Below are positions 731 through 50,598 of a DNA stretch of 64,000 nucleotides, piece by piece. The position numbers and the translations under genes were made by a program. How positions within the stretch are numbered: position 1 is the stretch's first letter; each line of letters begins with the position of its first letter. The notes under the pieces are model-generated. The model did no database searches. It was not told where the DNA came from and saw only the letters and a list, made by a program, of their open reading frames with translations. The stretch is from Lingula anatina (lineage: Eukaryota > Animalia > Brachiopoda), in the NCBI GenBank assembly GCA_051362555.1, contig CM120642.1, forward strand, positions 19,468,001 to 19,532,000, in the 5' to 3' direction.

Positions 731-968
731 ATATGGGGGTGGTCGGCTCATGCCCTAGTTAGATTCCACTTTACCAAAATAACACGATTCAGAAATGGGC
801 CTCCGAGGACGTGTATTTTGACAGCGCCCCTTGCATAGTTGAGAGCGACTTTTAGAGTGTGTTAGGCTTCTCGCCTTTATTATAAGGAAAGATCGTCTCT
901 GATAGGAAGGTAGGTGTCTCACCTACATAGTAGGCCCATGAGATTTATAGATACTGATCTACATAGGG

Positions 969-984
969 TGCCCTGAAAAGGGCA
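969..984 (-). terminator. Histone 3'-end-like stem-loop (copy 3)
   Basis: Minus strand GAAA-TGCCCT-TTTC-AGGGCA-CCCTA: 6-bp stem, TTTC loop, G-C at pair 2, U-A closing pair. Confidence 0.55.
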
Positions 985-2230
985 TTTCGTGATTGGCACG
1001 CCTGTCGAGGGAAGGGGAAGGGTGGACAGGTGTTTGGGGGTGGTCGGCTCATGCCTTTGTTTAACTACCTCTAATCAAAATAACACAATCCAAGGCTGGG
1101 CCCCTGGGGACGTGTGTATTGACAGCGCCACTAGTTAAAAGCTTAGAGATTGTTTGTTGGACGCTCGGGATTGAGAATTGATGCTCTAATTCCCTTGGAT
1201 TTTCCTCCGTTACGCTTGTGTAAAGGAGTGATTTGATATATCAGTTTATAGTTATATCTGACGGATTGAGTGTGCGTAGCCGTGTACAGTGTACTGTGTG
1301 AGGCGTCTCACTTCAGCGTGGTGTAGAAAGAGGCGTCTCACCTCTGTATGAAAGTGACCAGAGAAGGTTTGTACGAGAGACGTACAGCCTGGAGGGGGGA
1401 GGGGGTGGACTGGTTGCAGAAAGCGCTTTTCGATCAACAAGTGACCTTCATCAGCTGCAGAGTCCGAAAAAAGGGGGGGGGGGGTGAGGGGGTGGTCAGT
1501 GCTGTATAGCAGCAAATGGTTTTCCCCAGGTGGAGAGAACCAGGTTCTCATCAAAGGTGTCTTGCCTTTGTGAGTGTGTGTCTGCTTACGCAGATTGTAA
1601 GTGCACTTTTGTGCGAGGACGTCTCGTCCTTACAAAGGTGTCTCGTCTTTGTATGTGTGTATTTGCTAGGCAGATCACAGTGAGAGAGTACGTTCACAAG
1701 TGTCCCGCTTGGCGATATAGTGAATCCACGAAAGTATCTCGCTTAGGTGGAGGTGTTGCTTACTGACAGCGGCACAGTTAGGTGGTGAGGACAGTCACCT
1801 GCGTGTCACTAATGTGAACCAAGGAGTTCTGACAACGACGTGTTGATTGCTCAATGGTCGAAGTAGAACTGATTTTGCAGGTTGCCCTCTGGTTACTAAA
1901 TAGTCTAGGGCGTCCGTTGATTGGTCGACACTCACGGTCTTTTCTGATTGGATGAAATTTATTTGGAGATTAGGATTCGAGGTGTGAGGTTATCCTCTAG
2001 TTCTCGGGAGGGTGGTATTGATATTAGGGGAGCCACTGTTACTTTGTTTTCGGCCAAGCGGCTGGTTATTTTCATCCTAATAGCTCGTAGCTTTTAATAA
2101 GGTTTGAGATAGACGGTTCAGCAGATGTGTTTCTTGTCCTTTTTTAGTTAATTAGATCCCGGTGGTGTTAAAGCCGGGCGAGTATTCTCCGAATTATTTA
2201 TTTTCTAATGTTTTTATATATATGAGCATA

Positions 2231-4646
2231 GCTTCGCTATGCCGAAGGTTCGCTGTGCCGAGGGTTCGCTATGCCGAAGGTTCGCTGAGCCGAAGGTTCG
2301 CTATGCCGATTGTTTTTATTTTGTGCCGAAAGGTTCGCTGCGTCGACGGCTCGCTATGCCGAAGCCATCGTAGAGTTAGATACCCCATACTTTGAAGAAA
2401 ATATTTTGAAAAAATATCTTTTTTTATTAAAATAATATATAATAGCATTACTAGCCTTTAATACTACAAAGAACATGCATTACACACTATATTTTATGCA
2501 TATATAATTGCGTATTTGTATATACAATTACGTAAACATACAGGTTTATTCTGTGTGTTAAATATAAATTAAATAATATATCAGTTAAATTGATTTTTGA
2601 GTAAAAGCCTTCATTCATTTTGCCGGTAGGGGACAGCGCGCTATGCCGAGGGTTCGCTGTGCCGAGGGTTGTGCCGACAAAACCGGAAAATTGGTCTAAA
2701 ATCGGCTAAGTTTTTCCGGAGCCCCAAAATCAAAGGTTCGCTATGCCGAAGGTTCGCTGTGCCGAAAGGATCTGGTTCGCTGTGCCGAGGGTTCGCTGCG
2801 CCGAATAATTCGGCTACCCATCACCCATTGTGCTTATATAACGTGACGAGCAGTGGCCTTTTTTTTTTAAATAAACGAGTTTAAAAAGTTCTCTTCTTCC
2901 ATCCATACCATTTGAATTTGTTAAAACTGCGCATTGAAAGTATATCCTTATGGACATAAACATCTTAAATCGCTTTAAATAATCAGTTCTGTAAGCTAAT
3001 TTATTAATTATTTTTGGCACTATGCCCGCACGAAAACGAAGTAGATACTCCAGCGCAGTAGACTACTGCAATCATACTGCAAACATGCTTCAAATCTGCT
3101 TCGATGGGGGAGCTAATTAGCATATTTGAAACATGCTTCTATCATGCTGCTAATCTACTGCATTAATGCTCCTCCTCTGTACAACCCTATGTAATTTTTG
3201 AAGTAGAATTGCAGTAGGCTATACTGCATTTCTACTGCAAATATGCTCCGCACCACTACTGCGTTAATGCTTCTTTGCTACTTCGATACTACTGCATTTT
3301 CGTGCGGGTGGCACTATGGCACTATGGCACTATGGCTATCACCCACTTTAGGAAATTACTGAAAAGAAAACTTTCTCTAATTATTTTTGGCGAACTTGTA
3401 GTTATTGTGTGTGTGTAAAATTAACATCTTTTTTATTTATTATCATTATACTTTTAGTAGTCGTAATTGTCACATGCAGTTATTTTAGCTTCGTATTTTT
3501 GTTATTATCTATCTAATTACTATTTATTATTGATTAAATTAAAAAAGTACACGACTGAAAACAACAACGAAACGATTTGCCCCCAAATATAAGGAAGCTT
3601 ATATTACACTTGCCACAAAATTGATCGTTGGCCTATATCGCTTGGCAAAATGGGGACAGCGCTATGCCGAGGGTTCGCTGTGCCGAGGGTTCGCTGTGCC
3701 GACAAAACCGGAAAATTGGTCTAAAATCGGCTAAGTTTTTCCGGAGCCCCAAAATCAAAGGTTCGCTATGCCGAAGGTTCGCTGTGCCGAAAAAGTCGGC
3801 TACCCATCACCCATTGTGCTTGCTATATAACGTGACGAGCAGTGGCCTTTTTTTTTTAATAAACGAGTTTAAAAAGTTCTCTTCTTCCATCCGTACCATT
3901 TGAATTTGTTAAAACTGCGCATTGAAAGTTTATCCTTATGGACATAAACATCTTAAATCGCTTTAAATAATCAGTTCTGTAAGTTAATTTATTAATTATT
4001 TTTGGCACTATGGGCGTCACCCACCTTGGGAAATTACTGAAAAGAAAACATTCTCTAATTATTTTTGGCGAACTTGTAGTTATTGGGTGTGTGTAAAATT
4101 AACATCTTTTTATTTATTATTATTATACTTTTAGTAGTCGTAATTGTCACATGCAGTTATTTTAGCTTCGTATTTTTGTTATTATCTATTTTAAAATAAC
4201 TATTTATTATTGATTTAATGACATATAGTTTTATATTTGTGTGCTGTGTTACTTTTGATAATTAATTGCGTTAGCCAACTAGCACATGTACCTCTCAGAA
4301 CTGATAAAGATACTTATTTAAATGTCAGAATACGTAACGAAATATGTAATGCATGTTCTTTGTAGTATTAAAGGCTAGTAATGCTATTATATATTATTTT
4401 ACTAAAAAACGGTATTTTTTCAAAATATTTTCTTCAAAGTATGGGGTATCTAACTCTACGATGGCTTCGGCATAGCGAGCCGTCGACGCAGCGAACCTTT
4501 CGGCACAAAATAAAAACAATCGGCATAGCGAACCCTCGGCATAGCGAACCTTCGGCTCAGCGAACCTTCGGCATAGCGAACCCTCGGCACAGCGAACCTT
4601 CGGCATAGCGAACCCTCGGCACAGCGAACCTTCGGCATAGCGAAGC
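2231..4646. mobile_element. Foldback-like non-autonomous DNA element with ~260-bp inverted arms built from a 16-bp tandem unit
   Basis: 2231-2490 is the reverse complement of ~4345-4646. The unit TTCGCTRTGCCGARGG repeats in both arms and internally. Internal tandem duplication ~2630-3540 vs ~3650-4215. The short ORFs here are repeat artefacts. Confidence 0.8.
3025..3308. mobile_element. MITE with CCC...GGG termini nested in the foldback element
   Basis: TIR cccgcacgaaaa / ttttcgtgcggg, flanked by a TG duplication. Absent from the sister internal copy near 4010. Confidence 0.75.
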
Positions 4647-4779
4647 GCCTTGGGCTTCTCGCTTTTCTGATGATTTCTTTCAAAGTATAGAGATGGTTTC
4701 TCACCCATGGGAAGGGACAAAAGAGTGCTTTTATTTGCTGGTTGTTTATTTATTTCTTTGTATGAATATTTTGGTATAG

Positions 4780-4820
4780 CTTTTCCTGAGCATGTGTGTA
4801 GCCCTGAAAAGGGCTGTTTT
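4780..4820 (-). terminator. Histone 3'-end-like stem-loop plus HDE-like element (copy 2)
   Basis: Minus strand AAAAC-AGCCCT-TTTC-AGGGCT-ACACA (stem-loop 4815-4800), 22 nt after the TGA at 4838. CAGGAAAAG (4788-4780) follows 11 nt later. Confidence 0.7.
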
Positions 4821-4837
4821 AATTTAGTGCTGCTTGT

Positions 4838-5322
4838 TCATTTGAGGCGCTTCAGGGTGGCCGCTGTGCGGCGTTTTGCTTTGGTGGATGTGACGATCTT
4901 TTTCTTCTTGGATTTCATCGTAAGGAGTAGGGCGCGGACCTGTTCCAGTAGATCTGGGTTGGTGTTGGAAGTCGGTTGAGGGCTTGCGTTTATTTCGTAC
5001 GTCCCGTGTATCTTATAGAAGTCCTCTGTCTTGGATTCGCGGGCTAGGGCCTCTTCATGATACTCTTTGGCTCTTTTCAAGAAGTCCTCTATGTGAAGTT
5101 CGATAGTATATGTCTGATTGCTTCTGATGCCTTGTCCTGGATGTCGATCAGTTGTGAAGTGAGAGCTTCGTGGCCAGGGCATCCTATAAATCCACCCTGG
5201 CCCTGACTTTGTGCGCTCCCCTTTCTAGTTGTTTGTTTATGTGGTTTGCCCATTCTGTACAGCCCGTGGTGTACTGCTTGGTTTCCCTCACCTCCCTCAC
5301 CTCCTCGTAATGAGGATTGTTA
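4838..5322 (-). pseudogene. 5'-truncated, frameshifted tandem duplicate of the 176-aa non-histone ORF
   Basis: Near-identical to 5395-5877. Retains the intact basic C-terminus KSKKKKIVTSTKAKRRTAATLKRLK* and has frameshifts upstream of TIELHIEDF. Confidence 0.7.
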
Positions 5323-5335
5323 CATTTTGGTATAG

Positions 5336-5376
5336 CTTTTCCTGAGCATGTGTGTAGCCCTGAAAAGGGCTGTTTT
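5336..5376 (-). terminator. Histone 3'-end-like stem-loop plus HDE-like element (copy 1)
   Basis: Same AGCCCT-TTTC-AGGGCT-ACACA stem-loop at 5371-5356, with CAGGAAAAG at 5344-5336, downstream of the stop at 5395-5397. Confidence 0.7.
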
Positions 5377-5394
5377 TAATTTAGTGCTGCTTGT

Positions 5395-5924
5395 TCATTT
5401 GGGGTGCTTCAGGGTGGCCGCTGTGCGGCGTTTGCTTTGGTGGATGTGACGATCTTTTTCTTCTTGGATTTCATCGTAAGGAGTAGGGCGCGGACCTGTT
5501 CCAGTAGATCTGGGTTGGTGTTGGAAGTCGGTTGAGGGCTTGCGTTTATTTCGCACGTCCCGTGTGTCTTATAGAAGTCCTCTGCCTTGGTTTCGCGGGC
5601 TAGGGCCTCTTCATGATTCTCTTTGGCTCTTTTCAAAAAGTCCTCTATGTGAAGTTCGATAGTATGTTTGATTGCTTCTGATGCCTTGTCCTGGATTTCG
5701 ATCAGTTGTGAAGTGAGAGCTTCGTGGCCAGGGCATCCTTTAAAATCCACCCTGGCCCTGACTTTGTGCGCTCCCCTTTCTAGTTGTTTGTTTATGTGGT
5801 TTGCCCGTTCTGTACAGCCCGTGGTGTACTGCTTGGTTTCCCTCACCTCCCTCACCTCCTCGTAATGAGGATTGTTAGAGGCGCGCGGGGAATTCTGCCC
5901 TTAGGTGGGCCCGTTCTGTGCCAT
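5395..5924 (-). pseudogene. Intronless ~176-aa helical protein of unknown function with a Lys-rich C-terminus (one premature stop, one 1-nt frameshift)
   Basis: aaaaATGgca at 5924 is in frame with ORF 5409..5855 (MAQNGPT*GQNSPRASNNPHYEEVREVRETK...). Restoring one base from the duplicate gives 177 codons ending at TGA 5395. Confidence 0.6.
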
Positions 5925-5984
5925 TTTTGCGATTCCTGTTGTCTAGGTTTTGGCCGTTTGTGGTTTTCTCTGCTTTGTTTGAAC

Positions 5985-6370
5985 CAAAGATGTTGCAAAG
6001 ATGTTGCAATATTCATCACAGTAGCATGCTATATTAACAACAGAGTCTACAGTGTTCCCATCGTACAGACAAAACTTTTCATCTGCCATCACTTGAATCC
6101 AATAATTCGGCAGTGGGAGGCACATTTTCGAGAGGAACGGTGCTAGTTGCAGGTCTTTGGTTTGAGGCTGTGAAAATATTGCCCGAATTGTCTATACGTG
6201 TCAAAATAGCTCTGGTAGTTGCCGATGGTGCTGGGTCACTGCACGGATTGTCGCAACACCTACTGCCTTCTCGCTGGCAGAACACAGAGGCCAGGAAAAG
6301 CGTGAGCAAGACTATTGCTCTTGTGGCCCCGTGTATCATTGTGTACTTGCGTATACCGCTGACTTTTCCT
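5985..6370 (-). pseudogene. Truncated third paralog of the SMB-domain gene (signal peptide to SMB motif)
   Basis: ATG 6339 MIHGATRAIVLLTLFLASVFCQREGSRCCDNPCSDP... aligns with genes A and B. Frameshift after PLENV, then NYWIQVMADEKFCLYDGN...CYCDEYCNIF, then cut by the 732-5985 block. Confidence 0.9.
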
Positions 6371-6998
6371 AGGAAGAGAAAATATACTACAATATTAAAT
6401 AGATAAACAGATAGAGTCACATACGCATAGAGATTATTTATATGAAGATGACCTGGAAGTACCATTCAACGTAATTCATTTCACTCAAACCTTTCCACAG
6501 CTGGACTTATTCACTCCTTAGTTACCTGAAATTGTGAGCAAGTTTAAAAGAATGTATTTAAATAAAGTAATAATAATCACTTGTTTACGAAAAACACTTA
6601 ACAACTATCAATTTTACTTTAATATAATTTTGATGAAGTTCGTTACTAGAAATACCTTGTATATATTGTTGTCTTGTAAGTCTAACCTTTCCCAGAAGTA
6701 ATGAGCAGTAAAACATAAGGGGCATGGTGGTTAATTCAGTATGATAGTTTGGTTAATCTTTTTCATTCGTGTCGGTATTCGGGTACGCATACCGATAGTC
6801 CGAAGGTTCTGAATTCGCACCGCAATAGTTGTCGGCCATCTTAACTCCAATTTGAAAGTAGCCGCCAGATGTAGCTCAAGCAGGGGAAGACGACACTTGA
6901 AGCCCAATTAGCCTTTTTCATCTTTTCCGGAAATGGAAATTGCATTGTGGGCAGGGGAGCCCTGCTACGTCGAAACACTTACAGCGGTGCTAAAAACC

Positions 6999-13799: not shown

Positions 13800-15300
13800 T
13801 AGTACGGTATCTATCTACTTTTTATAGGACTGCCCATATCATTTTCAAGGACGGTTCATTTGAATATTAAAACAAAAATCAATTTCTCGGATATGAATAT
13901 GTTTTAGGCATTTAAGTGGAATTGTCCAATATACTTTCTATCATTTGATATGTTTTTCATTAAATGTCAAATATCAGCTTAGAATTCCAAGTAAAAGAAG
14001 TAGGCAAAAACATTTCAAGCATATAAGGGAACTTTACTAAACATATTACTATGAAATCGCAAAAGCTTTCAATAGTGAGGGATGTTATAAGTTATTTTCC
14101 ACAAAAAAAGTCTCTTCGTCAACTCGTTTTCCCTACTCTCCAATGCTTCAAAGTCGAGTACACTTTTATTAAGATCCAAAGATCTATAATGATAAATCAG
14201 TCACATTGACCAACCATTGCAATGCATATCCAATCAAGGAGGCTTTGGCATTTGTATTACACCTTAGGAATTAATATTTCGTGATGTGGCTTTATTTCCT
14301 TTCACGTGCCATTGTGTTTACCAGTAATTTTTTTCATCATTATATATTTTAATTAAAATGGTGAGATCACGTAGGAACCTATATAGGAAGTGGGGGTTCA
14401 TTTCGACCTTATTAAATTCTAAATGTGTGTTTGTATGGGTGCGCGCGTGTTTGTTCAAAATCTGCCATGAGTCAACATTGATCTAGAGAATCAGTATATA
14501 TTTCTATAGGCTGCGTTTCTGGATAATGATGTTGAAGACAAGTACCAATGAAAGTTATGTGTGCCAGAGACGAAATCTTGAATTAAACTGTAAGGGATTA
14601 TTCTCCAGATATTCCAATTACAGTTACACCTTTTTTTAACCAACCAGACTCGAAGGAATCAAAATCAATTTTAAGTGTGTGAAACTTACCACTCACAAGC
14701 CAATTAACAAGGGGTAGGGAGTAGATTTATTAGCACCCCCATTCCACCACCACTCTTCCTCTCAAGACTGAGAAAGTTGCAAAAATTACTGGGGGTATAT
14801 CTATATTCACTATTTCCCCTATAACCCCTTACCCCTGGCTTCTACTTCAATGTCCACCCTATTTTAATACCCCCTGTACCTAAATGAGTCATCTGAATAG
14901 CCTCGCGGCAACAACTTACTATCCTTTGTGGCAGCAACTCAACTGAATATCTAATAATAAATATATGTTTGGTTTTTTACGAATGTCCGTATTTTTTTCA
15001 AGAACGTTTCATTTCCTCAGACAAAGTCAGCTTTTTGTTATGTTGAACACTCGTAATGTCATTTTTTTCTTTAAACAGGTAACGACCTCTCGGAATGAAG
15101 GGATCAACCAATTCAAAAACAGCTGTTCACTAAACTTATCTTATACCATGTGTTTGTTTTGAAAAAAATAGAAAAAAGGAAGAAAATAGAAGGTATCGCA
15201 AGGTCAAAATCTAGTCACTTGTTGAGTACTTACCAGATTATGATTTGATTTCAAATCCTTGTTTTATTTAGGTCCCTAACAAAATAATTAACGGACTTAA
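13800..15300. repeat. Degenerate repeat block immediately 3' of SMB gene A
   Basis: Same core as the other blocks. 14480-14670 matches 43320-43490, and 14830-15070 matches 63685-63890. Confidence 0.8.
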
Positions 15301-17585: not shown

Positions 17586-18209
17586 CTAGTACGCCCCAAT
17601 ACAAAAAAACATCATTGGTAACACCAACAGTCCCCATACCCCCAAAGACAAAAGCTGCCCACTGCTGGATGGTGTACGGTCGGTTACTTCAGGGAGCAGC
17701 AATTCTGTCGGTGTCTTTCGATTAGACCCGCGGTCAGTGCGAGCTGCACAAGACTGGATCTTCACGCGGTCTCGTACCTCTATCAGGAAATCAATACCTC
17801 TGTAACTGTAAGTCGGCATTCTCTCGGCAAACTTATCTTGCAATACTGACAAAAAAGGCAACCCATCTCTGTACGTTTTTACTGTTGCCCGTAACAATAA
17901 TCCAAAGTCTCCTACAACAGCACCGTAGTCTCTCGTTTCAGGCTGATCAAGGTTCGAGCTGTTCACTGCGCGACATCTGTGATTTATCCTTCTCCTTACC
18001 TCCCAGACGTTCCGAAAATCATTGGCCAAGCTTATCTTTCCTAATGAGAGACGTTTGCCAAAATCTTCACAGGCGCTAATGGTCTCATTCACGTTATTTT
18101 TTTCGTTTTTGGGAGTCTTAAAAAGCAAGGTGAGTGTGTATGCCGCCTTGAACATGTGTTTCAATAGTGACGGGCACGGGTCCGACTCTTCCTCGCCTGG
18201 GCAGCGCTC
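17586..18209 (-). CDS. SMB-domain Cys-rich GPI-type surface protein A, last coding exon
   Basis: Acceptor ...tttttaatccAG|GAGCGC (phase 0), 207 codons plus stop, ending SSSGQLLSLGVWGLLVLPMMFFCIGAY* (small-residue omega site, then a hydrophobic tail). Confidence 0.85.
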   Translation of the reverse strand, partial: ERCPGEEESDPCPSLLKHMFKAAYTLTLLFKTPKNEKNNVNETISACEDFGKRLSLGKISLANDFRNVWEVRRRINHRCRAVNSSNLDQPETRDYGAVVGDFGLLLRATVKTYRDGLPFLSVLQDKFAERMPTYSYRGIDFLIEVRDRVKIQSCAARTDRGSNRKTPTELLLPEVTDRTPSSSGQLLSLGVWGLLVLPMMFFCIGAY

Positions 18210-19173: not shown

Positions 19174-19787
19174 CTGAAACTTCACACATAAATGGCAATG
19201 TAAAATTTCGGGTAGTAGTTTTTTATCAAACGAAAATTAAGGTATACATATATTAAATGTCATTAAGACCTGATATTTTCCTTTCCAGTATATCTTACCT
19301 AATAGAAGGATATGAAAAGTATTTGTGAGAAAACCCAGGCAGATTGCTGGGCTCCGGTAAACCACGTCATTCTAAAAATAATATTCAAAGCCCCACTGCG
19401 TACAGTGAGGGTTTTCATATGATCTTATTTTAAATGATACTATCATTATTAATGTTATTTTTATTATTATTATTATTAACAGGCTCTTGGTGTTATCCTA
19501 CCTTGGGGTCCATTGCTCCAGAAATCTTATGATTATTTTTACGTAGGCAATCACCATTTTTATCAACATGAGAAAAGCTGAGGAAAATGAGTGTTCATAT
19601 ATGGGTAAACGTAAATTAATGTCATGGGGTTGACTTAATTATCATCAAACATGTCTCGAAACATGCGTGATATCGCTATTCGCGTGCGGGCGACAAATAC
19701 ATAACCGCCCTTAAGGCCAATGCAAATGGTATAACGACATAAGTTAATTAAAATGAAAAAGCCGCTTATATTCGAGCATTTAATTAC

Positions 19788-20871
19788 CTTTATCCTGTGT
19801 GATCTGCTCTGGGCACTGAAAAATTGTTGGTTTCTTCGTATATCGGCAAATCCAACAAAAGTGATTTTTGTAATAATGTTTATGCTTTAACGGAATACCA
19901 TACTCCACCGCTTGCGTGATAGGCCAACTGTGACCCCTTTCGCAAAGGTCCCGATAAGGGTTTCCTTCGTGACAATGTTGCCCACTTTGATGCCATGGAT
20001 ACCCTCTAACGTGAGTGCCATCTTTGATGCACGGCCTACCGACAATCCCTTCCGGTTCTCGAAAGTACAGCTTGCAATCGTGCGAGTTATGGACAAGATG
20101 GAAAATGTCGGATGTGTTTCTGCTATCTGCGAAGATGTCACTAGAAAGCCAGGTGCAAAAAACAAACGTTGGCCATGTTCTGTATGACGTCACACCATGA
20201 CAAAATGCACAGTATAAGTTCCTAAAGGTAAGTCCGGAAACAGAATCTGAAACCGGTAGAACAGCCATTCCGTCTTCGTCTGTGCCATTCGGTCTTTCAC
20301 AGGCCGAGCGAATTCCCACGTCCGACCAACCATTTGGACATGCGGAAACCATCCAGAAATGCCTGCGAGGTTCTCCCCAAGAGCTTACCGTGTCTTTTGT
20401 CATCTGCGATGCACAGGTGACGTCATCAGGGTCTAATGTTATTGTATTCGCTGACGTTGATGAAAATTTGGAATCCGACTCATCTGTATGATTGCAGGTA
20501 ATGTTAACGGCGAAACAACAGTCAACAAAAGTATTGCAATACGCATCACAGTAACATGCTATATTAACAACAGTGTCTAGACTGTTCCCATTGTAGATAC
20601 AAAACTTTTCACCTGCAGTCACTTGACTCCAATAATTCGGTGCCGTGGCAGTCACATTTTCGAGAGGAACGGTGCTAGTTTCAGGTCTTTGGTTGGAGAC
20701 CGTGGAAATATCACTCATATTGGCTTCACGTGTCAAAATAGCTCTGGTAGTTGTCGGCGGTCCTGGGTCACTGCATGGATTGTCGAAACACCTACTGTCC
20801 TCTCCCTGGCAAATCACAAAGGCCAGGAAAAGTGAGTGCAACACTATTGCTATTGCGCCCCTCTGTAGCAT
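19788..20871 (-). CDS. SMB-domain protein A, first coding exon (signal peptide, S/T-rich linker, SMB-like motif, Cys modules)
   Basis: ATG 20871 MLQRGAIAIVLHSLFLAFVIC (signal peptide); CYCDAYCNTFVDCC; LPVSDSVSGLTFRNLYCAFCHG; YYKNHFCWIC; donor AAAG|GTAATT. The spliced product is 604 aa. Confidence 0.88.
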
Positions 20872-21159
20872 TGCGTACTTGATTATAGCGCTGACCTTTA
20901 TTGAGAAAAGAAAATACACTGCAATATGAAATACATTAGAAAAAATACACATAGTATTTAATTACGTATAGCTGACGTGAAGTACCCCTTAGCGTATACT
21001 CACTTCTATTAATAAATTTTACGGCTGGGTTTATTCATTTCTGTGTTAGCTGCCACTATAAGTGAGTATTTTAGAATGCATATATTGTATATGTATTCAC
21101 TACTTTATGCATGTATTCACTACTTTACTTTAAACACCAAACATCTAAAACAAATATCA

Positions 21160-29100: not shown

Positions 29101-30958
29101 CAGGAGTGTACTGTCTACAAGATCACCAAACAGCTTAGTGGAGGCCGCAACAACCATTCTGCTCCGGTGAAAGACAAGAACGGCAACACCCTGGCCACAG
29201 AGCATGAGCAAGCAGCACGATGGGTTCAGCACTTCAAGGAGGTCCGTAACCACCTGATGATGGTATCTTGAACATCAATACAGATCCGCCCACCAGAGTG
29301 GAAGTCAGGAGTGCTATCATTGCTATGAAGCACGGCAAAGCATCTGGCATTGACAACATCCATGCAGAAATGCTGAAAGCTGATGTTGACATGGCCACAA
29401 ACTTACTGACTGACCTCTTCAGTACTATCTGGGAGAAGGACACGATACCAGACGATTGGGCAAAGGGTCTCATTGTAAAGCTCCCCAAGAAAGGCAACCT
29501 CCATGAGTGTGACAACTGGCGCGGGACCACTCTCCTGTCAATACCAAGCAAGATCTTCTGTCGAGTTCTGCTGAAGCGAATTGACCAAGCCATTGACTCC
29601 AGACTTAGACAGGAGCACGCAGGATTCCAGAAGGGCAGCGGATGCATTGACCAGAACTTCGCCCTGCGCAACATCATCGAGCAGTGTCTGGAGTGGAACA
29701 CGCCTCTATACATCAACTTTGTCAACTTCAAGAAAGCCTTTGACAGTGTGCACCGGGAAACATTGTGGAAAATACTGCTGTCATATGGTGTACAACCTAA
29801 GATTATCACTATAATCAGCATGTTCTACAGCCACTTCCAATGCAGTGTTATCCTGGACAATACCCTGATGGAGTCGTTCCCAGTGGATTCAGGTGTACGT
29901 CAAGGCTGTATCTTGTCCCCAGTCCTCTTCCTTGTGACCATCGACTGGGTCATGAGGAAGACAACATCCAACAAACCCAGAGGCATCCAGTGGACTCTCC
30001 TATCCCAGCTAGAAGACCTTGACTTTGCCGCTGACCTTGCCCTCCTGTCCTCCAAACACAGCCATCTCCAGGAGAAGACCGACCGTCTGAGTAGTTTTTA
30101 CAGCACAAGCGGGACTTGTCATCAGCACCACCAAAACCCAGGTTATAATAATAATAATAATATATTTATTTATTTTAAGTCTAAACTCCATATGAATATG
30201 TTCGTTAGACTTTACAAATATGTACATACATATAACAAGTATACAACTGGTCAAAACACGCTGTGTACAATCTCGCCTCCCTATGTGTATCAACAACAGT
30301 ACGACAGCACCTATCACCGTCAGTGGGAAACCACTTGAGTCTGTTGACGACTTCACATATCCGGGCAGTCAAATCAGCAAAAACAACGGGGCTCAGAAGG
30401 ACATCAGGGCAAGACTTGGCAAGGCCCAGAGTTCATTCGCCAGACTGCACACAATCTGGAAGTCAGAGCAGTACAGCTTACACACCAAAGTCCATCTTCA
30501 CAACAGCAGTGTGAAGTCTGTTCTGCTCTATGGGTCTGAATGCTGGAGAGTTACAAAGTCTGACATGAGCAGAATGGAGTCCTTCCATAACAGGTGTCTC
30601 CGCAGGATTTGCCGCATATTCTGGCCGAACAAGATCTCCAACCATGATCTGTTCATACTGACAGGGAATCAGAGTATTGTGGGGCAGATCAAGCGTCGGC
30701 GATTTCAGTGGCTCGGCCATGTACTTAGAATGGATGAAAACCGAGTACCAAAGGTAGCTCTGAGATGGACACCACCTGGAAAAAGAAAGAGAGGAAGGCC
30801 CAAGACCACCTGGCGCCGAACAGTAATAGCAGAGCTGAGGGAGTGGGACCTCACATGGGGACAGGCCCAGCACATTACCAGAGATAGGGCCAAGTGGAAA
30901 CTAGTGACTGTGGCCTTATGTCCCTCACGGGACGAAGAGGAATAATGATGATGATGAC
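29100..30958 (+). mobile_element. 5'-truncated RTE-clade LINE (RT pseudogene)
   Basis: LPKKGNLHECDNWRGTTLL, GVRQGCILSP, LDFAADLALL, WLGHVLRM, GKRKRGRPKTTW; (TGA)n tail at 30945-30957. Interrupted by a ~135-bp AT-rich insert (30146-30282). Absent from unit B. Confidence 0.93.
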
Positions 30959-32796: not shown

Positions 32797-35700
32797 AGTT
32801 GAAGAACTGAGCCATATATACTGCTGCACTTAACAAAACAGGAGGTAGGAAGCGGAATAGTTAGAGACCAGGGCGGTAACGGTGAGGCATAAAGGCACGA
32901 GCAAGGTAGAGGAGGAACTGGCGGTGTGGCAGGGTAGCTTAGAAAAGGAGGCGCATTTAAATTGTCCGGTTTAAAAGATAATAAAAGTAAATTAAACAGT
33001 CTGTATGATGACGTCTATTTAGATTTAAATTTTCAAAAGGTCGCAATTTTTTGGACAATATTATTTCTAAAAAATTAATAGCTTAAATGTTGATACAAAA
33101 TTTGTTTCTCTTTCGTCATTTGGTTTTAACTATTTATCTATCTTTTTAATGTTAAATTATTAAACTTTCTTTTACAAGAATACAATTTGTTTAGCCTTTT
33201 TAACAGTGGTCTCCAAGTCATTAAGCTGTTGAATTCGACAAACAATAGTCTAAAATCGGTGACTTGCTTTACTATGCTTCAGGCATATTTCCTACGGTTT
33301 TTATCAAATGTCAAACATCTAATGTTTTAACCATTGCGTGGTTTTACGTGTTTTACATGTTTGTACAAGTTTGATATCGACAAGCACAACAACGTATCTC
33401 TTTTGCTTTACTTCTATGCGTAGCAACAGGCCCCTTGGTATTTGCTCAAAATTCCGACTAAAATAAAAAGGCAAAAAACATTTTAAAGTATGTAAATGTA
33501 CGTGACTTAACATAATAACTAACCGAAAGTTATTAATATGATGGTCAGATATCATCTGCAAAAAGTAAAGTTCTATCTTGGTCCAATCGTTTTATTTTCC
33601 TCGTTGGTTCATAGTCGCAAACTCTGCATTTTACTTAGACTCAAAGATCTATTCCATAATGAAAAAGCAGTTACACTGACCAACCGTCGTAATGCATGTC
33701 AAATTGAGGATGCTTTGGCATACGTGTCACACCTTAGAGGTTGGTTTTTGGTGATGTGGCTTTATTTCCTTTTGTTTATCAGTAATTACTATTTTTCATC
33801 ATTAACTGATAGTAAAATCAAGTTAGAACCTCCGTATATAATATGTGATTTTGATATCGTTAAATTCAATGTATGTTTTTGTGGGGGGGGGGGCATGTTT
33901 GATCAAATACTGCCATGAGCCAACATTGATTTAGATAAAACGTGTCCTCTTAAACATTTTTATTTCTATAAGTTGCGGTTTTGAACTATGATGTTTGAGA
34001 AGAGTGCCAATTAAATATTTGCGTACTAAACATGAAAACTTAAATTAAACTTCAGGGATCACCCACCTTTTATTTCAACCATAGTTAAACATGACTAGAA
34101 GGAATCAAATTTAATGTGTTGAAATATTCATTCAAAAGACAATTAGAAAAAAGGACAGGAGTAGATTTATTGGCGCCCCCTCTCCTCCACCACTTCATGT
34201 GCTCAAGACTGACAAAGTTGCATGGTCAGTCCCCCAATTTCAGAAACTTAAAATAATTATTGCAATCTAAATAAATACTTGTGGACTTCCTTGGCAAGGT
34301 CATAGTTGAAATCAAACAACTCTTATTGCTATTCCAAATTTAACACAATTTGGACTTTACTTCCTTTTATTTTAAATTGTATTTTATTCCCTTAGACCGC
34401 AGTTATTCTTTACCAGTATACATTTACTAGCTTTTGTGGCAACAACTCATCTACTTGAATATACGTGTACATGTATACGCCTATCTGCTTATTATGCGTG
34501 GCTAAAAATGTGCTTGATTTTATAGAGGTGTACTTTTCAATTTTCAATACAAAAACACTTTTCGAGTTTGAATTTACTTCAGGCAATTGATTGGTGATGT
34601 CTAAGTTACCTGCTTTTATTTGATTCGGATTTCATCAAATGCCAAACATCTTATGCTCTTACCATGGTTTTACGTGTTTGACAAGTTTGATTTTGACTAG
34701 CAAAAAAGTTAAAGTCTATCATGGTACAATCACTTTTATTTACATAAAGGTCTACCCATAATAATAAAACAGTCACACTGGCCAATCCTTACAATGAATG
34801 TCCAATCAAAGACGCTTTGGCATACGTGCTACACCTTATGGCTTGACTTTATTTTCTTCCAGATGTCTTTGTGTTTATCAGTAGTTATTTTTGTCATACT
34901 TAAGTGGTAGTTAGATCACGCAGGAACCTGTCTTACAGTTGATCTTGATCTCTTTAAATTCGATATGTGTTTTATTCCAGAAGTAAAACAGTTTGGATTT
35001 TATGTAAAATTTTATTTTATCCTCTTACACTGCAGTCACTTTTTATCAGTATACATTTATTAGCTTTTGTGGCAACATCTAATTAACATGCATATAGGTC
35101 TATCTACTAACAGATATGCGTGGTTTGATTGCATACAGGTGTACACTGTGCATATCATTTTCAAGAACGTTTCATTTCAATTTTAATACGAAAACGCTTT
35201 TTCGAGTTTGAATATGCTTTGATTGGTGATGTCTGAATTATCGACTACCATTTGATACAGTTTTCGTCATGTTAAACATCTAAAGTCTAGCTAATTAGAG
35301 GTTCACGTATTTTACAAGTTTGAGCTCAACTAGCAGATTAACGTTTTTATTTTGAGGCAACAAGACCCCTTAGTATTTTCTTAAAATCCCAAGTAAAAGA
35401 AACAGGAAACATCATTCAAAGCATATAAGGGTACTTAACTAAACATATTACAAACAAAATCCCGAATGTTTTCAATGGTAGGGAATGTGTAATATGATGG
35501 TTAGCTGTCTTCCAGAAAAAGTTTAAGTTCTATCTAGTCTAATCGTTTTCATTCTCTTCCATTGGTTCAAAGTCGAGAACTCCCTGCATTTTATTAAGAC
35601 TTAAAGCTCCCTTCCATAATAATCCAACAGTCACACTTGCCAATCTTTGCAATGTGTGTCAAGTCAAGGACGCTTTGGCAGACGTGTTACACCTTCGAGA

Positions 35701-37524
35701 ATGCTTTTTCGTGATGTCGCTTTATTTCCTTTCACATGTCTTTATGTTTACCACTAAATAGGTTGTCGTCATTATATAGTCATTATATAGTTTGATCACA
35801 AGGGACCTATATAACAAGGCACTTCAACTCGTTATATTCCAAATGTGTTTGTGTGTGTGGGCGAGTGTCTTTTTTTTTTTTTTTTTTTTTCAAAATCTGC
35901 CATGAACCAACATTGATTTTGATAAAACGTGTCCTCTCAAACATTATTTCTATAAGTTGCGCCTTTTGGACTGTGATGTTTGAGAAGAGTGCCAATAAAT
36001 GTGTGAACCAAACATGAAAACTTAAATAAAACTTCAAGGGATCATTCACCTTTTATTTCAATCATAGACATTCCATAATAATAAAACAGTCACACTGGCC
36101 AATCCTTGCAATGAATGTCCAACCAAGAACGCTTTGGCATACGTGCTACACCTTATGGTTTGGCTTTATTTTCTTTCAGATGTCTTTGTGTTTATCAGTA
36201 CTTATTTTTCGTCATTTCTTTGGTGGCAGTTAGATCACGCAGGAACCTAACTTACAGTTGATTTTGATCTCGTTAAATTCGAAATGTGTCTTATTCTAGA
36301 AGTAAAACAATTTGGAGATTATTTAAAATTTTGTTTTATTCCCCTACACTGCAGTCACTTTTTATCAGTATACATTTATCAGCTTTTGTTGTAACATCTA
36401 ATTTACATGTACATAGGTTTATCTACTGATATATATGCGTGGTTTGATTTTATACAAGTGTACACTGTACATACCATTTTGATGTGATGTCTTAATTATG
36501 ATGTGATGTGATGTCTTAATTATCGACTATCATTTGATCCGGTTTTCGTCATGCCAAATATCAAAAGCTCAGCATACTAAAGTTTCACTTATTTTAAAAG
36601 TTTGATTTTGACTAGTAAGAGAACGTTTTTCTTTGGTTGTACCTCTACGCACAGCAACGAGTCTCCTTAGTATTTTTTTTTTTAATTCCAATTAAAAGAA
36701 ACAGGAAAAATAATTTCAAACCATACCGTATGAGGGTACTTAACTAAACAAAAAAAATCTATAATGGTTAGGTACATTTATGTATAATATGATGGTCAGT
36801 TATCTTCTTCAAAAAGTTAAATTCTACCTTAGTCTAATCGTTTTTATTCTCTTGCATTGGTTCAATGTCTGCATTTTTTTTCAAGACTCAAAGATATATT
36901 CCATAATAATAAAACAATCACACTGGCTAACCATTGCACTGCATGTCAGATTACAGACGCCATGGCATACGTGCTACACATTATGTTTTGGTTGTTCGTG
37001 GTTTGGCTTTATTTCCTTTCAGATGTCTTTGTGTTTATCTGTAATTCGTTTTTCATCATTATTAGTGATAGTTAAATCTCTTTGGATCCTGTATTGCAGG
37101 TGATTTTGATCTAGTTAAATTCGAAATGTGTGTTTATGTGTGTGTAGGCAAGTGTTTATTCAAAATCTGCCAGGAGCCAACATTGATTTAGATAAAACGT
37201 TTCCCCTCGAACAGTATTATTTATATAAGGTGTGTTTTTGGACTATGATGTTTGAGTGGCAATCAAATGTTTGTATACCAAAGATGAAATTTGAACTTAA
37301 ACTGCAAGGGACCATTGACCTCTTATTTTAATCATAGCAAGACGGGTTTTTTTACACATGACTCACAGGAATCGAATTTAATAAGCAGAAATATCCGTTG
37401 AAAAGTCAATTAGAAAAATGACAGGAGTAGAAGATTTATCTGTGCCCCCTCTCCTCCACCACTTTCTGTACTCAAGATTGCCACAGTTGCAAAGTCAATC
37501 CCCTTTTTCAGAATTTTATAATAG

Positions 37525-38340
37525 TTTGTTTGTTTGTTTGTTTATTTAAGTGACCTAAGTGACCTAATGCAAGTAATACAGTTACATTATTTTCTTTTTG
37601 CAGCCAGCCCTAGTGGGCGTTTAAGTCACTGTTTCATTCATGTTATTCTAATATATTAATGAACACAAAAATACATAAAAACAATAAATAATCTAAAAAT
37701 AAACGTATAAATAGCAAAGCTGTACGTTCAACTAATAGGAACTATGTAAATATAAAACATTAATTACATACAAGTATAAATAATAGAATGCATATACAAA
37801 CTAGGACGTTACTCATTATTAATGAACTCTTTCCGTATCATATAGGCACGTTTAAATTAATTACTTATATAATTACTAAAATTTTTATATGTTTCTCCAT
37901 TAATTTTTATGTTTCTATGGCAAATTTTAGTTCAAAAAGTCTTAATCAGTTGCTGTTATTTTTGTCAACATCTCTTCTCATATGTTATCGTAGGCGGCAC
38001 ATTCAAAAATATAATGCTTTTCATCCTCTATCACACAATGGGAATCCTTTTCTTCTAAACTGCATAACTTTTGATTTCTTACTATTAATTTGCAGTCTCC
38101 ATTTCATGCAATAATCATATAAGGTATTCATAATAATGTTCATATCATCCGGCGTTTCACTGAAAATAGCAATGTCGTCTGCGTACAACAATATATCTAG
38201 TCTAATGCCATCTACCATTACCCCTTTTCCAAGTGCTTTTATATCCTGAGTTAAATCATTTATGACTAGTGCAAATAAGGTAGGTGGTAGGTTGTCACCT
38301 TGCCTAACACCAGCCATCGTTTCAAACCAGTTTGAAATTT
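37525..38340 (-). mobile_element. Internally deleted non-LTR retrotransposon fragment (RTEX/CR1-like RT)
   Basis: GVRQGDNLPPTLFALVINDL...ILLYADDIAI...KWRLQINSKKSKVM; (AAAC)n tail at ~37525-37545. Confidence 0.8.
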
Positions 38341-40803
38341 ACACATGACATGGGGAAAACGCGGGAGTTCGTGCGTGATGAGCACGTCCATCGTGCGACT
38401 TTTGGAGGACGCAAACAGCACGTACAAACTTTTCAACATGATCAACAGCCGCTACGTGCGATCTAGCTACACCCTAGCCGGACGCAAGGAACCTAAAAAC
38501 CGTCCGTCCAAAACGTAGCTGGGACCTAGGCTGAATTGCCCTTTCGTGTGACGTCTGTGCGGAGGTAGATGGTGACCTTGCAAAATCGCTTAGAGTCGTA
38601 ATTGACAACTTTTATTAAATCGTAAGCGTCCGTAGACCGTATCGTTATAAATACGTCATTGTACGGGCATTGTACGGTGGATATCGGTTATCGCGAAACA
38701 ACACAAGGCGATCCTGCGATACGGAGCTGCCAAAATTGATAAGCATTGATTACATTTGCCACGGGGGCTGCACGATGGAATTGTATACGATTTTCCGTAC
38801 GATTTTTTTTTTCCGAATCGTAAGTAGCCATGGGCATACGTTTATAACGTGCGGGAGCCTTGCCATTTCTCTAACATCACCTCGAGGTCACGTGGAGGAA
38901 ATCGTACTTCGTTTGAAAAATTATCGTCTGGACCCCATCATTCTCAGTGCAGATGCCCATGCCTATTGCGCGCCTTCATTGAAAAATTGACACGCTGTCG
39001 GTGCAGCCCCCCTACGATTATTTTCAACCTTGTGTTTAGATTAAGTTCGCATTTATGCAAATAAATTACATCAAGGAGTTGTACAACATTTTAACATTTA
39101 AACATCTGTATTATTCTTATGCCTCCTAAACCACCAAATAAGGAAGGGAAAGAGACCAACAGCAGGTTAAACCATAATCACGATCATCGCAAGTCCACAG
39201 AACAATGCCCGTGTGGAAACTGCGCAATGCCATCTACGATATTGTTACGGCCTGCGGGCTTACGGTTAAAAAATTGTGAAAATTTTCAGCTTGACAAAAT
39301 CGTAGAGGCTACGGAGAAGGTGAATCCGTACGATTTCCTACGATTTCGTACAGTCAGTGCTTGCCTCCGAACAGACACAGCACGAAAAGAGATTTTCGGG
39401 CAGTTAACGAGCAACGTACGGGCATGGCATGGCAAATGTAAACGGGTTCTCGTGGGCCTTTTATACTGTGTTCGAGCGCTTATCTTCATGTTATTCCTCA
39501 TTCCGTTATTTTAGCTCTCTTTCAAATTTTGCCTTCGATTTAATAGAGTTTCTTTACATTTGTAGAAGTCATAATGAAACAGTGGATTTGAAGGGGTACC
39601 TCTCTTAAATTTTAATAAATGGTATAAAATGTGTATATTTTCACCACTATTTTGTATGTTTTAAACTATTAATCATGTTAGACACGGTATCTGTAACAAA
39701 AATCACTATTTCTAACAATTCACAGCTGTGAGGTGATCATTTGTAAATAAAATTACATGGAAATAGGGGTGGGACAACCTTTTGACCAATCTTGTATGTA
39801 TCTTTATTCTACTTTACGGTCTTTATTCTAATCTATGTATTTATTACTCAGAAAAAGTTAAAAGGATTAAACATTTACCATGACATTTAAGGTGTGGTAT
39901 CTGAGTTGTGATGATCTAAACTGAATATATATTAACAAAAAATAATGGAAAAAACCTGCACCACCGCAATGTTACTTTTTAAGGCTTTGCCTATTATTCG
40001 ACTGGAAATGGATACATGTAGCTAGATTAATAATGGATATCAATTTCATTTCTTTCAGTTGAGTTTACCTGATTGATTTTCATTTTACAGGTGTATCTTT
40101 GTTTAAGAATTCTAAATATGAACGGTTTCAGAAAGGCCAACAGATATCTTTCAGAACTCTTACCTGTGTTGGAGCTACAGTTTTTCTGTCCAAAAGGGAG
40201 ATCACTGACCCCTCAGCTGCAAATTCGATCTTGGACAAGTTGTTTTCCCTTAAAGACTTCTCTTCCATTCGTTCAAAGTCGAGAACTCCCTTCGCTTTTA
40301 TTTAGACTCAAAGATCTATCCCATAATGATAAAGCAGTCACACTGGCCAATCCATGCAATGCATGCCAAAAAAGGACGCTATTGCATACCTGCTACACCT
40401 TAGGGATTGTTTTTTCGTGGCGTGGCTTTATTTCCTATAAGATATCTTTGTGTTTATCAGTAATAAGTTTTTTTATCATAATTTACAGATAAATCAAGAT
40501 GAAGTCTACATATATGACATATGATTTTGATCAATACAATACAAAAACATTTTTCGAGTTTGAATATGCTTCAGGCAATTGATTGGTGATGTCTGAATTA
40601 CCTGCTTTCATTTGATACGGACATCATGCAATGTAAATCATCTAATCATCATGGTTTTACAATTGTTTTTTCGTGATGTCGCTTTATTTCCTTTCAGATG
40701 CCTTTGTGTTTATCACTTACTAGGTTTCCGTCATTTTATAGCGATAGTTAGATTACGAAGGGGCCTATATTACAGGTGATTTTAAGCTCGTTATATTCCA
40801 AAT

Positions 40804-40840
<37 letters not shown>

Positions 40841-46192: not shown

Positions 46193-46816
46193 CTATATAG
46201 CTAGTGAGACCAATACAAAAAAAGTCAGTGGAAACATCAACAGTCCACATACCCCCAGAGACAAAAGGTCTCCACTGCTGGATGGGGTACGGTCGGTTAC
46301 TCCAGGGAACAGCAATCCTGTCGGTGTCTTTCGATTAGACTCGCGGTCAGTGCGCGCTGGACAAGGCTGGATCTTTACGCGATCGAGTACCTCTACCAAA
46401 AAATCTACACCTCTATAACTGTAAGTCGGCATTCTCTCGCCAAACTTATCTTGCAAAACTGACAAAAAAGACAAGCCATCTCTGTACGTTTTTACTGTTG
46501 CCAGTAACAACAATCTAAATTCTCCTATAACATAGTCTCTCGTTTCAGACTGATCACGGTTCGAGATGTTCACTGCGCGACATATGTGATGTGTCCATCC
46601 CCTTACCTCCCAGACGTCCCGAAATTCATTGTCCAAGTGTATCTTTCCAGATGAGAGACGTTTGCTTAAATCGTCGCAGGCGCTAATGGTCTCATTCATG
46701 TAAACTTTTACGTTTTTGGGAGTTTTAAAAAGCAAGGTGAGTGTGTATGCCGTCTTGTACATGTGGGTGAATAGTGACGGGCACAGGTCCGACTCTTCCT
46801 CGCCTGGGCAGCGTTC
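46193..46816 (-). CDS. SMB-domain Cys-rich GPI-type surface protein B, last coding exon
   Basis: Acceptor ttttaatccAG|GAACGC; 624 bp; ends SSSGDLLSLGVCGLLMFPLTFFVLVSLAI*. Confidence 0.85.
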   Translation of the reverse strand, partial: ERCPGEEESDLCPSLFTHMYKTAYTLTLLFKTPKNVKVYMNETISACDDLSKRLSSGKIHLDNEFRDVWEVRGWTHHICRAVNISNRDQSETRDYVIGEFRLLLLATVKTYRDGLSFLSVLQDKFGERMPTYSYRGVDFLVEVLDRVKIQPCPARTDRESNRKTPTGLLFPGVTDRTPSSSGDLLSLGVCGLLMFPLTFFVLVSLAI

Positions 46817-48443: not shown

Positions 48444-48462
48444 TATTCGAGAATCTAATTAC

Positions 48463-49546: not shown

Positions 49547-50598
49547 TGCGTACTTGATTATAGCGCTGACCTTTACTGAGAAAAGACAATACACTGCAGT
49601 ATGAAATACATTAGTAAAAATACACATAATAAGTACTCCTTAAAGTTACGTCTATTAATAAATTTCACGCCTGAGTTTATTCATTCATTTCATTATTCAT
49701 AGTGTGTTAGCTGTCACTATAAATGAGTATTTTAGAATGTATATCTTAAAATTGAGATAGAACAATTCACTAGTTTACTTTAAACACTAAACATCTAAAA
49801 CAAATATCATTACCTCCGACAAGGAGGTTATGTTTTCATCCCTGTTTGTTTGTTTGTTTGTTTGTTTGTCTGTTTATTTGTTTATTTGTTTGTTTGTTTG
49901 TCTGTCTGTCATCAACATAACTCAAAAGTTATGGACCAATTTTGATGAAATTTTCAGGAACTGTCAGAAGTGGACCAAGGAACAGATGATTAGTTTTTGG
50001 TGATGAACTGGATCAATAATCAACTAATAATCAACAATTTGTTTTTTGTTTGTTTGTTGGTATGTTTGTCTGGCAGGTAACACGTGTGTAACCTTCGACA
50101 TGTTTAGAAAATCCATGGGCATTGATAACTTTCAATTACGTATATGCCACATACATTGCCCATAGAATAACTTTTGATTAAATAATTATTTTTCCACACT
50201 TTTGTTAATACATATCTTATGTGGACCGAGTTTGTGTCATTGGATATTTGGATAAAATCCAAGATAATCGCCATTCGACAGAGGAATACGTAGGTTTCAA
50301 CTACTGCCAAAAGATAGTGTCAGTAAAAAAATGACGTAAAGGTTAGTATATTTTGCCATGTTTTTCATACCCATATTATCCCTATTATTTATATCTGATG
50401 TGTAACAAGTGTGTATCCTTGAGTTTTATGCGAAAAAGAAAGATCGCTCTAATAAGCGATAGGAATACTTGTAAATCAGATTTCAGCTGCTACCAGAGGA
50501 ACATAGAATCGGGTGAAGAATGTGTTCCTCACTGTTATTCACAAACTAATTAATTCTTAAATGAAAATTATCAAACACAAGCCGAAATATTTTCATAC

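Follow-up and report, generated by a model that had tools for sequence, protein, structure and literature searches.

A histone-type mRNA 3' end behind an orphan open reading frame in a putative dead Penelope-type insertion of Lingula anatina

The stem-loop/U7 pathway of mRNA 3'-end formation, which involves SLBP and U7, a small nuclear ribonucleoprotein (snRNP), is by common teaching reserved for replication-dependent histone mRNAs. Here we describe a non-histone open reading frame (ORF) that ends in such a signal, in a 64,000-nucleotide stretch of the brachiopod Lingula anatina (assembly GCA_051362555.1, contig CM120642.1, positions 19,468,001 to 19,532,000; the whole stretch is called the window below). 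With a probability of roughly 55%, positions 5980 to 734, read on the minus strand of the window, represent a dead copy of one non-autonomous Penelope-type retroelement, split by a nested repeat and containing this ORF with its histone-type 3' end. Elsewhere, in public metagenome contigs, ORFs of mobile elements are followed by stem-loops of histone type and, downstream of these, a purine element, and the sequences make it likely that co-option of SLBP/U7 by mobile elements is general.

In the sense of the unit, the motif AAAAC-AGCCCT-TTTC-AGGGCT-ACACA occurs twice, with stems at 5371-5356 and 4815-4800, and CAGGAAAAG starts 11 nt 3' of each stem (5344-5336 and 4788-4780, minus strand). The TGA stop codon of the ORF lies 23 nt before the stem of stem-loop 1, and that of its tandem copy 22 nt before the stem of stem-loop 2. 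An earlier sequence-only reading of this DNA had described just this arrangement, a stem-loop with these flanks about 22 nt past the stop and a purine word 11 nt further on, and it is present at both copies. That reading overlooked a third stem-loop (984-969), a hammerhead motif (1458-1416), and the continuation of the unit past the nested repeat. The ORF copies and the signals are as follows:

5395 to 5924, minus strand: orphan intronless ORF, copy 1, whose ATG at 5924 is followed by a stop in codon 8 and, near 5433, by a break in the frame
5356 to 5371, minus strand: histone-type stem-loop 1, with UUUC loop, A-U pair 1, and G-C pair 2, which folds as predicted
5336 to 5344, minus strand: purine element after stem-loop 1, similar to a histone downstream element (HDE), an 8-purine run from +13 with TC before the run
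4768 to 5322, minus strand: copy 2, a tandem duplicate of ORF plus 3' end that is truncated on its 5' side, with stop at 4838-4840
4800 to 4815, minus strand: histone-type stem-loop 2 (RF00032 match 4776-4820, 29.1 bits)
4780 to 4788, minus strand: HDE-like purine element after stem-loop 2, 8 purines at +13
969 to 984, minus strand: histone-type stem-loop 3, with a compensated pair 1 (U-A for A-U; RF00032 15.2 bits, E 1.4)

Stem-loops 1 and 2 follow the histone rules as laid out, together with the SLBP and U7 snRNP pathway, in bioRxiv 10.64898/2026.10.14.759114: a 6-bp stem, a 4-nt loop, G-C at pair 2, and U at loop position 3. The Rfam model RF00032 (Histone3) matches both, at 5332-5376 and 4776-4820, each with 29.1 bits and E 1e-5. 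A strict stem-loop pattern occurs three times in the window and in none of 100 and none of 200 shuffled versions. The third occurrence, stem-loop 3, sits between a CCAAT box (996) and a TATAAA box (949). An 8-purine run like those after stem-loops 1 and 2 has a background frequency of 6-7%, and H1 genes in metagenome contigs (see below) have a comparable run of 7-10 nt at +14 to +17, likewise preceded by TC. Overall, the likeness to a metazoan replication-dependent histone mRNA 3' end, whose machinery includes SLBP, U7 snRNP, and CPSF73, comprises the stem, the loop, the G-C pair 2, the A-rich 5' and AC-rich 3' flanks, the intronless ORF, the purine element at +13, and a 16-mer identical to that at H1, H2A, and H2B loci. 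Unlike such an end, it follows a non-histone ORF in a dead mobile insertion and scores 29.1 bits against a threshold of 34.

To place the signal, we turn to a scan of public metagenome contigs for the same stem-loop type, in which 120 stretches of about 123 yielded 119 loci. These come largely from few related data sets, and clustering leaves 32 of them as singletons and sorts the others among 19 families with several members. Viral contigs, scanned twice for the stem-loop, contained none. Pair 1 is A-T in 113 of the 119 loci, T-A in three, and unpaired in three. Histone loci account for 15 of them, 14 with a histone match at most 700 nt upstream and one (L109) that clusters with H1; the identical 16-nt stem-loop lies 3' of H1 genes in seven of these 15, and it is found behind H2A and H2B as well. 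Among the 106 loci having at least 250 nt upstream, 92 have no histone match there. The upstream ORFs of at least 50 amino acids (n = 69) were compared with Pfam, which returned 14 histones (two of them in L011) and no family for 48, with a low-complexity match in L066 set aside. The others include two transposase-type ORFs, one combining DUF4817 with a transposase-type helix-turn-helix (L031, 423-1613) and one with a DDE_3 transposase domain (L042, 250-1017, E 1e-15), whose stops precede the stem by 27 and 32 nt, respectively. GDSL ORFs stop 59, 45, and 40 nt before the stem in L033, L035, and L054, and an F-box ORF does so at 25 nt in L043. Longer ORFs in the surrounding contigs entered the Pfam scan in 65 of 111 cases, the other 46 being mostly bacterial frames or already scanned. 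Contigs of Polinton type with the stem-loop were recognized from a Pox_A32 ATPase (L051), DNA_pol_B_2 (L055), and a weak Adeno_IVa2 match (L070), and in all three small helical ORFs end in the stem-loop. A Gypsy-type pol lies upstream of the stem-loop in L007 and L073, and three loci (L060, L064, and L074) are bacterial.

A purine element, defined as a run of at least five purines at +8 to +20 (28% in random windows), follows the stem-loop at 13 of the 15 histone loci, at 20 of 28 non-histone loci from six hand-picked groups, and at none of the three bacterial loci. In the largest data set, a downstream word of the CAAAGA type is common to histone and non-histone loci. Tandem double or triple stem-loops are frequent among the non-histone loci. 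The sequence-only reading held the signal to be essentially restricted to histone genes; for the stem-loop type found here this does not stand, given the transposase, GDSL, and F-box ORFs that it follows.

Several groups of these loci merit description in their own right. ORFs of Tc1/mariner-type transposases (L031, L042, L013, L050, L104, L117, and L119; also L032, L057, and L116) stop 20-32 nt before a stem-loop that is sometimes doubled; the transposase label of L013, L116, and L119 comes from clustering or by eye, not from Pfam. One Tc1/mariner cluster has A-U at pair 1 in some members and U-A in others (L050, L104). Small ORFs ending in single, double, or triple stem-loops occur in Polinton-like contigs (L051:6004, L055:5428-5480, L070:389-440, L062, L091, and L097), and L062 contains, by eye, a protease-like frame. 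Families of GDSL/SGNH esterase ORFs (L025, L033, L035, L054, L056, L085, and L101) and of F-box ORFs (L009, L029, L043, L068, L084, and L087) are multi-copy, and both have the stem-loop and downstream word of the histone genes in the same data sets. In Gypsy-type elements or their flanks (L007, L072, L079, L096, and L073), the stem-loop and purine element lie 0.4-1.4 kb past pol. Finally, in L003 (2169-2190) a stem-loop stands at the very start of the endonuclease-reverse transcriptase (RT) frame of a long interspersed nuclear element (LINE), where it could part an upstream message from the RT ORF.

Returning to the window, the two copies of the ORF derive from one 555-bp tandem duplication and are 96.9% identical over 557 columns; they therefore represent a single observation of the signal rather than two. 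Copy 1 is open from 5900 to 5412 (163 amino acids, P0001), and copy 2 has no start codon and shows frame breaks near 5745 and 5665. The 176-residue protein reconstructed in the sequence-only reading stands as a single open frame in neither copy; the tandem partial copy described with it is real. Because the first codons exist only in copy 1, the start codon cannot be cross-checked. The copies differ by one synonymous and nine non-synonymous substitutions (22% synonymous expected by chance) and by three coding indels, a pattern that points to neutral decay and, together with the broken frames, agrees with the earlier description of both copies as mutated. The codon-position bias of the open stretch (chi-square 21.7, equalled by 4 of 115 tiles of the window) suggests that it was likely once a real gene.

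The product of this stretch has no recognizable relative. Its single-sequence structure model contains helices at 12-41, 59-113, and 132-151 and no strands, with a predicted local distance difference test (pLDDT) score of 69.9 and a predicted template modelling (pTM) score of 0.34; the heptad pattern is weak, at most 5 of 16 a/d positions being aliphatic or Phe. A Foldseek search with the model gave no matches, and VIA-align reached a best Z of 5.8 on generic long helices only, which gives neither a fold assignment nor an exclusion. Pfam has no significant family for the 163-residue stretch. None of 65 word-sharing candidates proved homologous to it, nor did any of 17 candidate stretches from viral contigs or 536 from metagenome contigs, and it shows no similarity to the 2154 six-frame peptides of the 119 stem-loop loci. 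The best ESM Atlas scores, 0.90 and 0.87, belong to unnamed phage clusters and are weak, with recognition below threshold. A single match among 1.84 billion representatives (P0002) was dismissed as the translation of a tandem repeat.

The insertion has a defined 5' side. It interrupts a host gene whose remaining 5' fragment shows, up to 5996, 78% and 84% DNA identity to the paralogous 390-amino acid ORFs at 19780-20952 and 48455-49627; the remainder of the host paralogue was not found below 734. This truncation, along with the substitutions and indels between the copies, bears out the mobile part of an earlier proposal of a mobile element or virus-like unit, as a dead insertion; the anatomy points to a hammerhead-bearing element of Penelope type more than to a virus. 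The parts are, in the direction of the unit:

5981 to 6528, minus strand: 5' fragment of the host gene (ORF 6079-6465), cut off by the insertion
5985 to 6009, no strand assigned: host sequence duplicated in tandem over 11 bp where the insertion begins at its 5' junction (2.3 copies of period 11 by Tandem Repeats Finder)
5925 to 5980, minus strand: A/C-rich leader of 56 nt before the ATG, at the 5' end of the insertion, a truncation point or mRNA start
4691 to 4767, minus strand: A-rich sequence that follows copy 2 and contains the hexamer AATAAA twice (4750-4745 and 4735-4730)
2229 to 4690, no strand assigned: nested repeat whose two ends are arrays of a 16-mer in inverted orientation, A+C 0.52, neutral strand composition
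1470 to 2228, minus strand: A/C-rich spacer with no coding signal, ending in a splice-acceptor-like pyrimidine tract and CAG just 5' of the hammerhead core
1407 to 1465, minus strand: minimal type I hammerhead motif (1458-1416), with core CTGATGA at 1454-1448 and GAAA at 1431-1428
734 to 1135, minus strand: 3' terminal region resembling a pseudo-long terminal repeat (pseudo-LTR), with two diverged repeats of about 105 bp (1030-1135 and 730-835) and the family 3' end at 734

The hammerhead has a short helix I, an unpaired base ahead of helix II, and a palindromic helix III. It is the sole match of our own descriptor in 64 kb (none in 20 of 20 shuffles) and lies on the same strand as the ORF; among the Rfam hammerhead families, none matches at 1458-1416. 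Scans with the hammerhead pattern beyond the window also returned six viral loci, which are not hammerheads, and 120 prokaryotic stretches, judged from their titles to be chance. In the spacer, the 7 frame breaks compare with 7.9 in shuffles (chi-square 4.0). A resemblance by eye of ATG 4708 and the frames below 2229 to a Penelope N-terminus was dropped, there being no coding signal.

The repeat at 2229-4690 appears to be a secondary insertion that split the unit. It is non-coding and internally duplicated; numerous RNA reads that stem from further copies map to it, and two runs show a joint from 3432 to 4511. The segments that flank it have a sense-strand A+C of 0.64, 0.65, 0.61, and 0.57, compared with 0.50 in the host gene and 0.52 in the nested repeat; among 75 background tiles the highest value is 0.568. 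Because of this common A+C-rich sense strand, their co-orientation, and the same rare stem-loop in both, we infer that the ORF half and the hammerhead half belong to one element.

This anatomy is close to that of hammerhead-bearing Penelope-like elements, which have minimal hammerheads in pseudo-LTRs, with helix I marking where an intron ends (Cervera and De la Pena 2014, PMC4209133), form partial tandem copies, capture spacers of 0.9-1.5 kb, and mobilise unrelated genes in trans (PMC8557442; PMC3846280; PMC6431247). Shared with them are the type I minimal hammerhead with its short helix I, unpaired base ahead of helix II, and palindromic helix III, the splice-acceptor-like site at helix I, the partial tandem copy, and a 3' terminal region that contains repeats and boxes of promoter type. 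Unlike Penelope-like elements, the unit in the window contains no RT or GIY-YIG domain, and its tandem covers the small ORF rather than the hammerhead repeat: the partial tandem (555 bp) and the 105-bp 3' repeats are both present, and the hammerhead is single. Lacking an RT, the unit does not count here as an autonomous member of that group. The coiled-coil accessory ORFs of Athena and Terminon elements (PMC6431247; PMC8557442) resemble our ORF, by description only, in being helical with a basic patch like a nuclear localization signal; in contrast to these elements, the unit is non-telomeric and has no canonical telomeric-repeat stretch, no RT, and weak heptads. Neither Craig et al. 2021 (PMC8557442) nor Arkhipova et al. 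2013 (PMC3846280) mentions histone-type stem-loops, and the word "histone" is absent from the main texts of PMC8557442, PMC6431247, and PMC3846280. Conversely, "transpos" and "non-histone" are absent from bioRxiv 10.64898/2026.10.14.759114. Outside subscription papers, Repbase notes, and preprint supplements, we found no report of histone stem-loops on mobile-element genes in a search of literature listings and the openings of abstracts; the nearest title concerns repression of human LTR12 elements by U7 through HDE-like motifs (PMC11417402).

For an active relative of this unit, we envisage that the stem-loop and purine element would give access to the host SLBP/U7 pathway. SLBP would bind the hairpin and U7 snRNP would cut 5 nt after it, yielding a short non-polyadenylated mRNA of the ORF whose synthesis and translation would coincide with those of histone mRNAs, in S phase or in the germ line. 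Uncut read-through RNA would extend to the hammerhead and terminal repeat and serve as template, to be copied in trans by the RT of an autonomous Penelope-like element, so that the 3' signal would divide a single transcript between two roles, message and template. The insertion in the window extends past the predicted cut site, and the RNA copied here was hence not cut by U7. The possibility that the copies are retrocopies of U7-cut mRNA is rejected, as both continue at least 30 nt beyond that site.

RNA reads offer a partial view of this family. The stretch, in whole or in part, is found in nine DNA runs of one organism, and no RNA run is listed with it. Reads were placed at 82% likeness from 4 of the nine listed raw RNA runs (6%, 6%, 6%, and 25% of each; two poly(A)-selected libraries and two unspecified), and what follows draws on 40 of 213 difference rows and 24 of 71 loose read ends. 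The hammerhead half is covered by reads from diverged copies, and loose ends lie before 734 (X10 and X13) and behind 1467 (X10), among those listed. The copies in RNA diverge at 1467, right beside the hammerhead, and the ends before 734 have different flanks in X10 and X13. Loose ends at these two positions point to a transcribed multi-copy family that ends at the terminal repeat and hammerhead. In addition, seven reads of X10 fit 4781-4812 only, that is, the stem-loop, spacer, and purine element, and differ in their flanks; in the upstream flank, alignment by eye to the ORF stop and 3' untranslated region matches 20 of 30 columns. This suggests a diverged relative that has kept the signal better than its surroundings. 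Their interpretation as an expressed sense paralogue was downgraded, the strand being ambiguous.

A number of results weigh against a Penelope-type element with a working histone-type end. The body of the ORF has a read depth of 0 in all four runs at 4820-5241 and 5875-6900, and of at most 0.43 at 5453-5874; no sense RNA reads end at the predicted cut site in the four runs, of which the two poly(A)-selected libraries would under-sample U7-cut RNA. In X13, reads in the stem-loop bin and reads near the hammerhead lie on opposite first-mate strands, and so cannot both be sense transcripts; the reads on the stem-loop signal may be antisense passengers. Six-frame Pfam comparison of 700-2229 found no family, and hence no remnant of an RT or endonuclease. 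No target-site duplication is seen at the 3' end at 734, the sole duplication being the 11 bp at the 5' junction, and none is seen around the nested repeat, which leaves the former adjacency of 4691 and 2228 unproven. With no protein homologue in any search, no relative shows the ORF, stem-loop, and hammerhead together, and our descriptor detects a co-oriented hammerhead at no locus of the metagenome set of 119. As to the signal itself, stem-loop 3 has no HDE-like purine run, and the purine element is missing at three of six Tc1-type loci. The stem begins 22-23 nt past the stop, which is at the bottom of the distances reported (23-31 nt in model organisms, with a stated range of 25-60 nt, in bioRxiv 10.64898/2026.10.14.759114). 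Lastly, an RF00032 scan of the window at gathering level gives no match, the three stem-loops scoring 29.1, 29.1, and 15.2 bits against a threshold of 34. A score below this threshold had been named in the sequence-only reading as evidence against the signal; because the same 16-nt stem-loop lies 3' of true H1, H2A, and H2B genes (15 of 119 loci), the cut-off cannot sort real from false signals here.

A more tentative explanation, which we regard as distinctly less probable than a single Penelope-type element, is that the ORF and its histone-type end are foreign cargo, either a Polinton-like element's accessory gene or an orphan gene of the host in histone style, captured in trans or inserted independently beside a hammerhead repeat, with a signal that was functional in its source. 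Capture in trans is documented for Penelope-like elements (PMC3846280), and in the mobilised cargo of Adineta vaga described there, a terminal repeat that bears a hammerhead is likewise preceded by an unrelated ORF or spacer. Such an origin would accord with the absence of any similarity between the two halves beyond the stem-loop, and with RNA reads that fall on the hammerhead half and not on the ORF. The small helical ORFs ending in this stem-loop in L051, L055, and L070 could represent a Polinton-like source, and the F-box ORFs bear the stem-loop too. However, P0001 resembles none of the six-frame peptides of the 119 loci and nothing in viral contigs, and no Polinton marker, be it pPolB, integrase, packaging ATPase, capsid genes, or terminal inverted repeats, is evident beside the ORF, in the case of genes judging by the ORF list of the window (which was not scanned with Pfam in full). 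The strand bias common to both halves and the third stem-loop within the hammerhead half also speak for a single element.

It is also conceivable, if improbable, that the hairpin was used without cleavage by U7, for SLBP-dependent export or translation, as a decoy, or for recognition by an element RT, with 3' ends formed at a downstream AATAAA. Two such hexamers lie 50-70 nt past stem-loop 2 and form a possible fallback poly(A) signal, and the inserted copy reaches beyond the predicted cut. The bare hairpins at stem-loop 3 and some Tc1-type loci, and the double or triple stem-loops common at non-histone loci, would also be compatible with this use. Against it stand the purine elements at histone position after stem-loops 1 and 2 and at 20 of the 28 selected non-histone loci, as well as the identical CAAAGA-type word that one data set uses after histone and non-histone loci.

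That the ORF encodes a linker histone or a protein of protamine type that has diverged very far, or that a histone 3' end was patched onto unrelated DNA, is a reading already largely refuted and very unlikely: despite the stem-loop shared with H1 in 7 of 15 histone loci and a short basic KSKKKK patch, the protein has no Linker_histone or Histone match in Pfam at E up to 1 (true H1s of the metagenome loci score about 1e-28), tblastn of H1, H2A, H2B, and H3 queries from the fetched loci (no H4 query) finds nothing in the window at E 0.01, the model lacks a winged helix, the composition (K+R 17%, D+E 14%, isoelectric point 9.0) is not that of a histone, and a stop at histone-like distance would be unexpected of a random patch. 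By its sequence and its model, the protein is thus an orphan and no histone, linker histone, or protamine-like protein. The sequence-only reading had likewise seen no histone fold or H1 winged helix, and the outcome it feared, a linker histone or protamine in disguise, is not borne out.

The window has a G+C content of about 36% and contains LINE fragments and paralogous genes, features suggestive of an animal genome, probably that of an invertebrate. The 390-amino acid ORFs at 19780-20952 and 48455-49627 are intact-looking paralogues in a local duplication, cysteine-rich and with a signal-peptide-like start; paralogous ORFs of 189 amino acids (17586-18155 and 46193-46762) belong to the same duplication. 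The paralogous gene copies that were tested match no Pfam family, and the 390-amino acid ORF has no database homologue at near or longer lengths. LINE RT fragments lie at 29325-30945 and 56317-57427, by eye RTE-like and CR1-like. A single repeat or non-coding segment, dispersed but clustered locally, recurs in many copies (65-90%, diverged) at 1-730, 13977-14783, 33350-37526, 40258-43487, and 60252-63860.

The locus in Lingula is itself dead; its value is that it directs attention toward a carrier of Penelope type and a wider pattern. Taking in Penelope-type, Tc1/mariner, Polinton-like, and Gypsy elements and the GDSL- and F-box-coding repeats, we lean, on the strength of sequence comparisons, toward the view that SLBP/U7 3'-end formation in invertebrates is not histone-specific and that unrelated classes of mobile DNA took it over independently, be it for timing to S phase or the germ line, for avoidance of poly(A)-linked control, or, in retroelements, for a split between message and template. 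If so, mobile elements would gain replication-coupled or maternal expression when transposition is heritable, and their RNAs may compete with histone mRNAs for SLBP. Such RNAs would escape poly(A)-selected RNA sequencing and thereby bias estimates of transposon activity. They would also constitute natural non-histone substrates of SLBP and U7, with a downstream element that tracks the HDE of the host histone genes.

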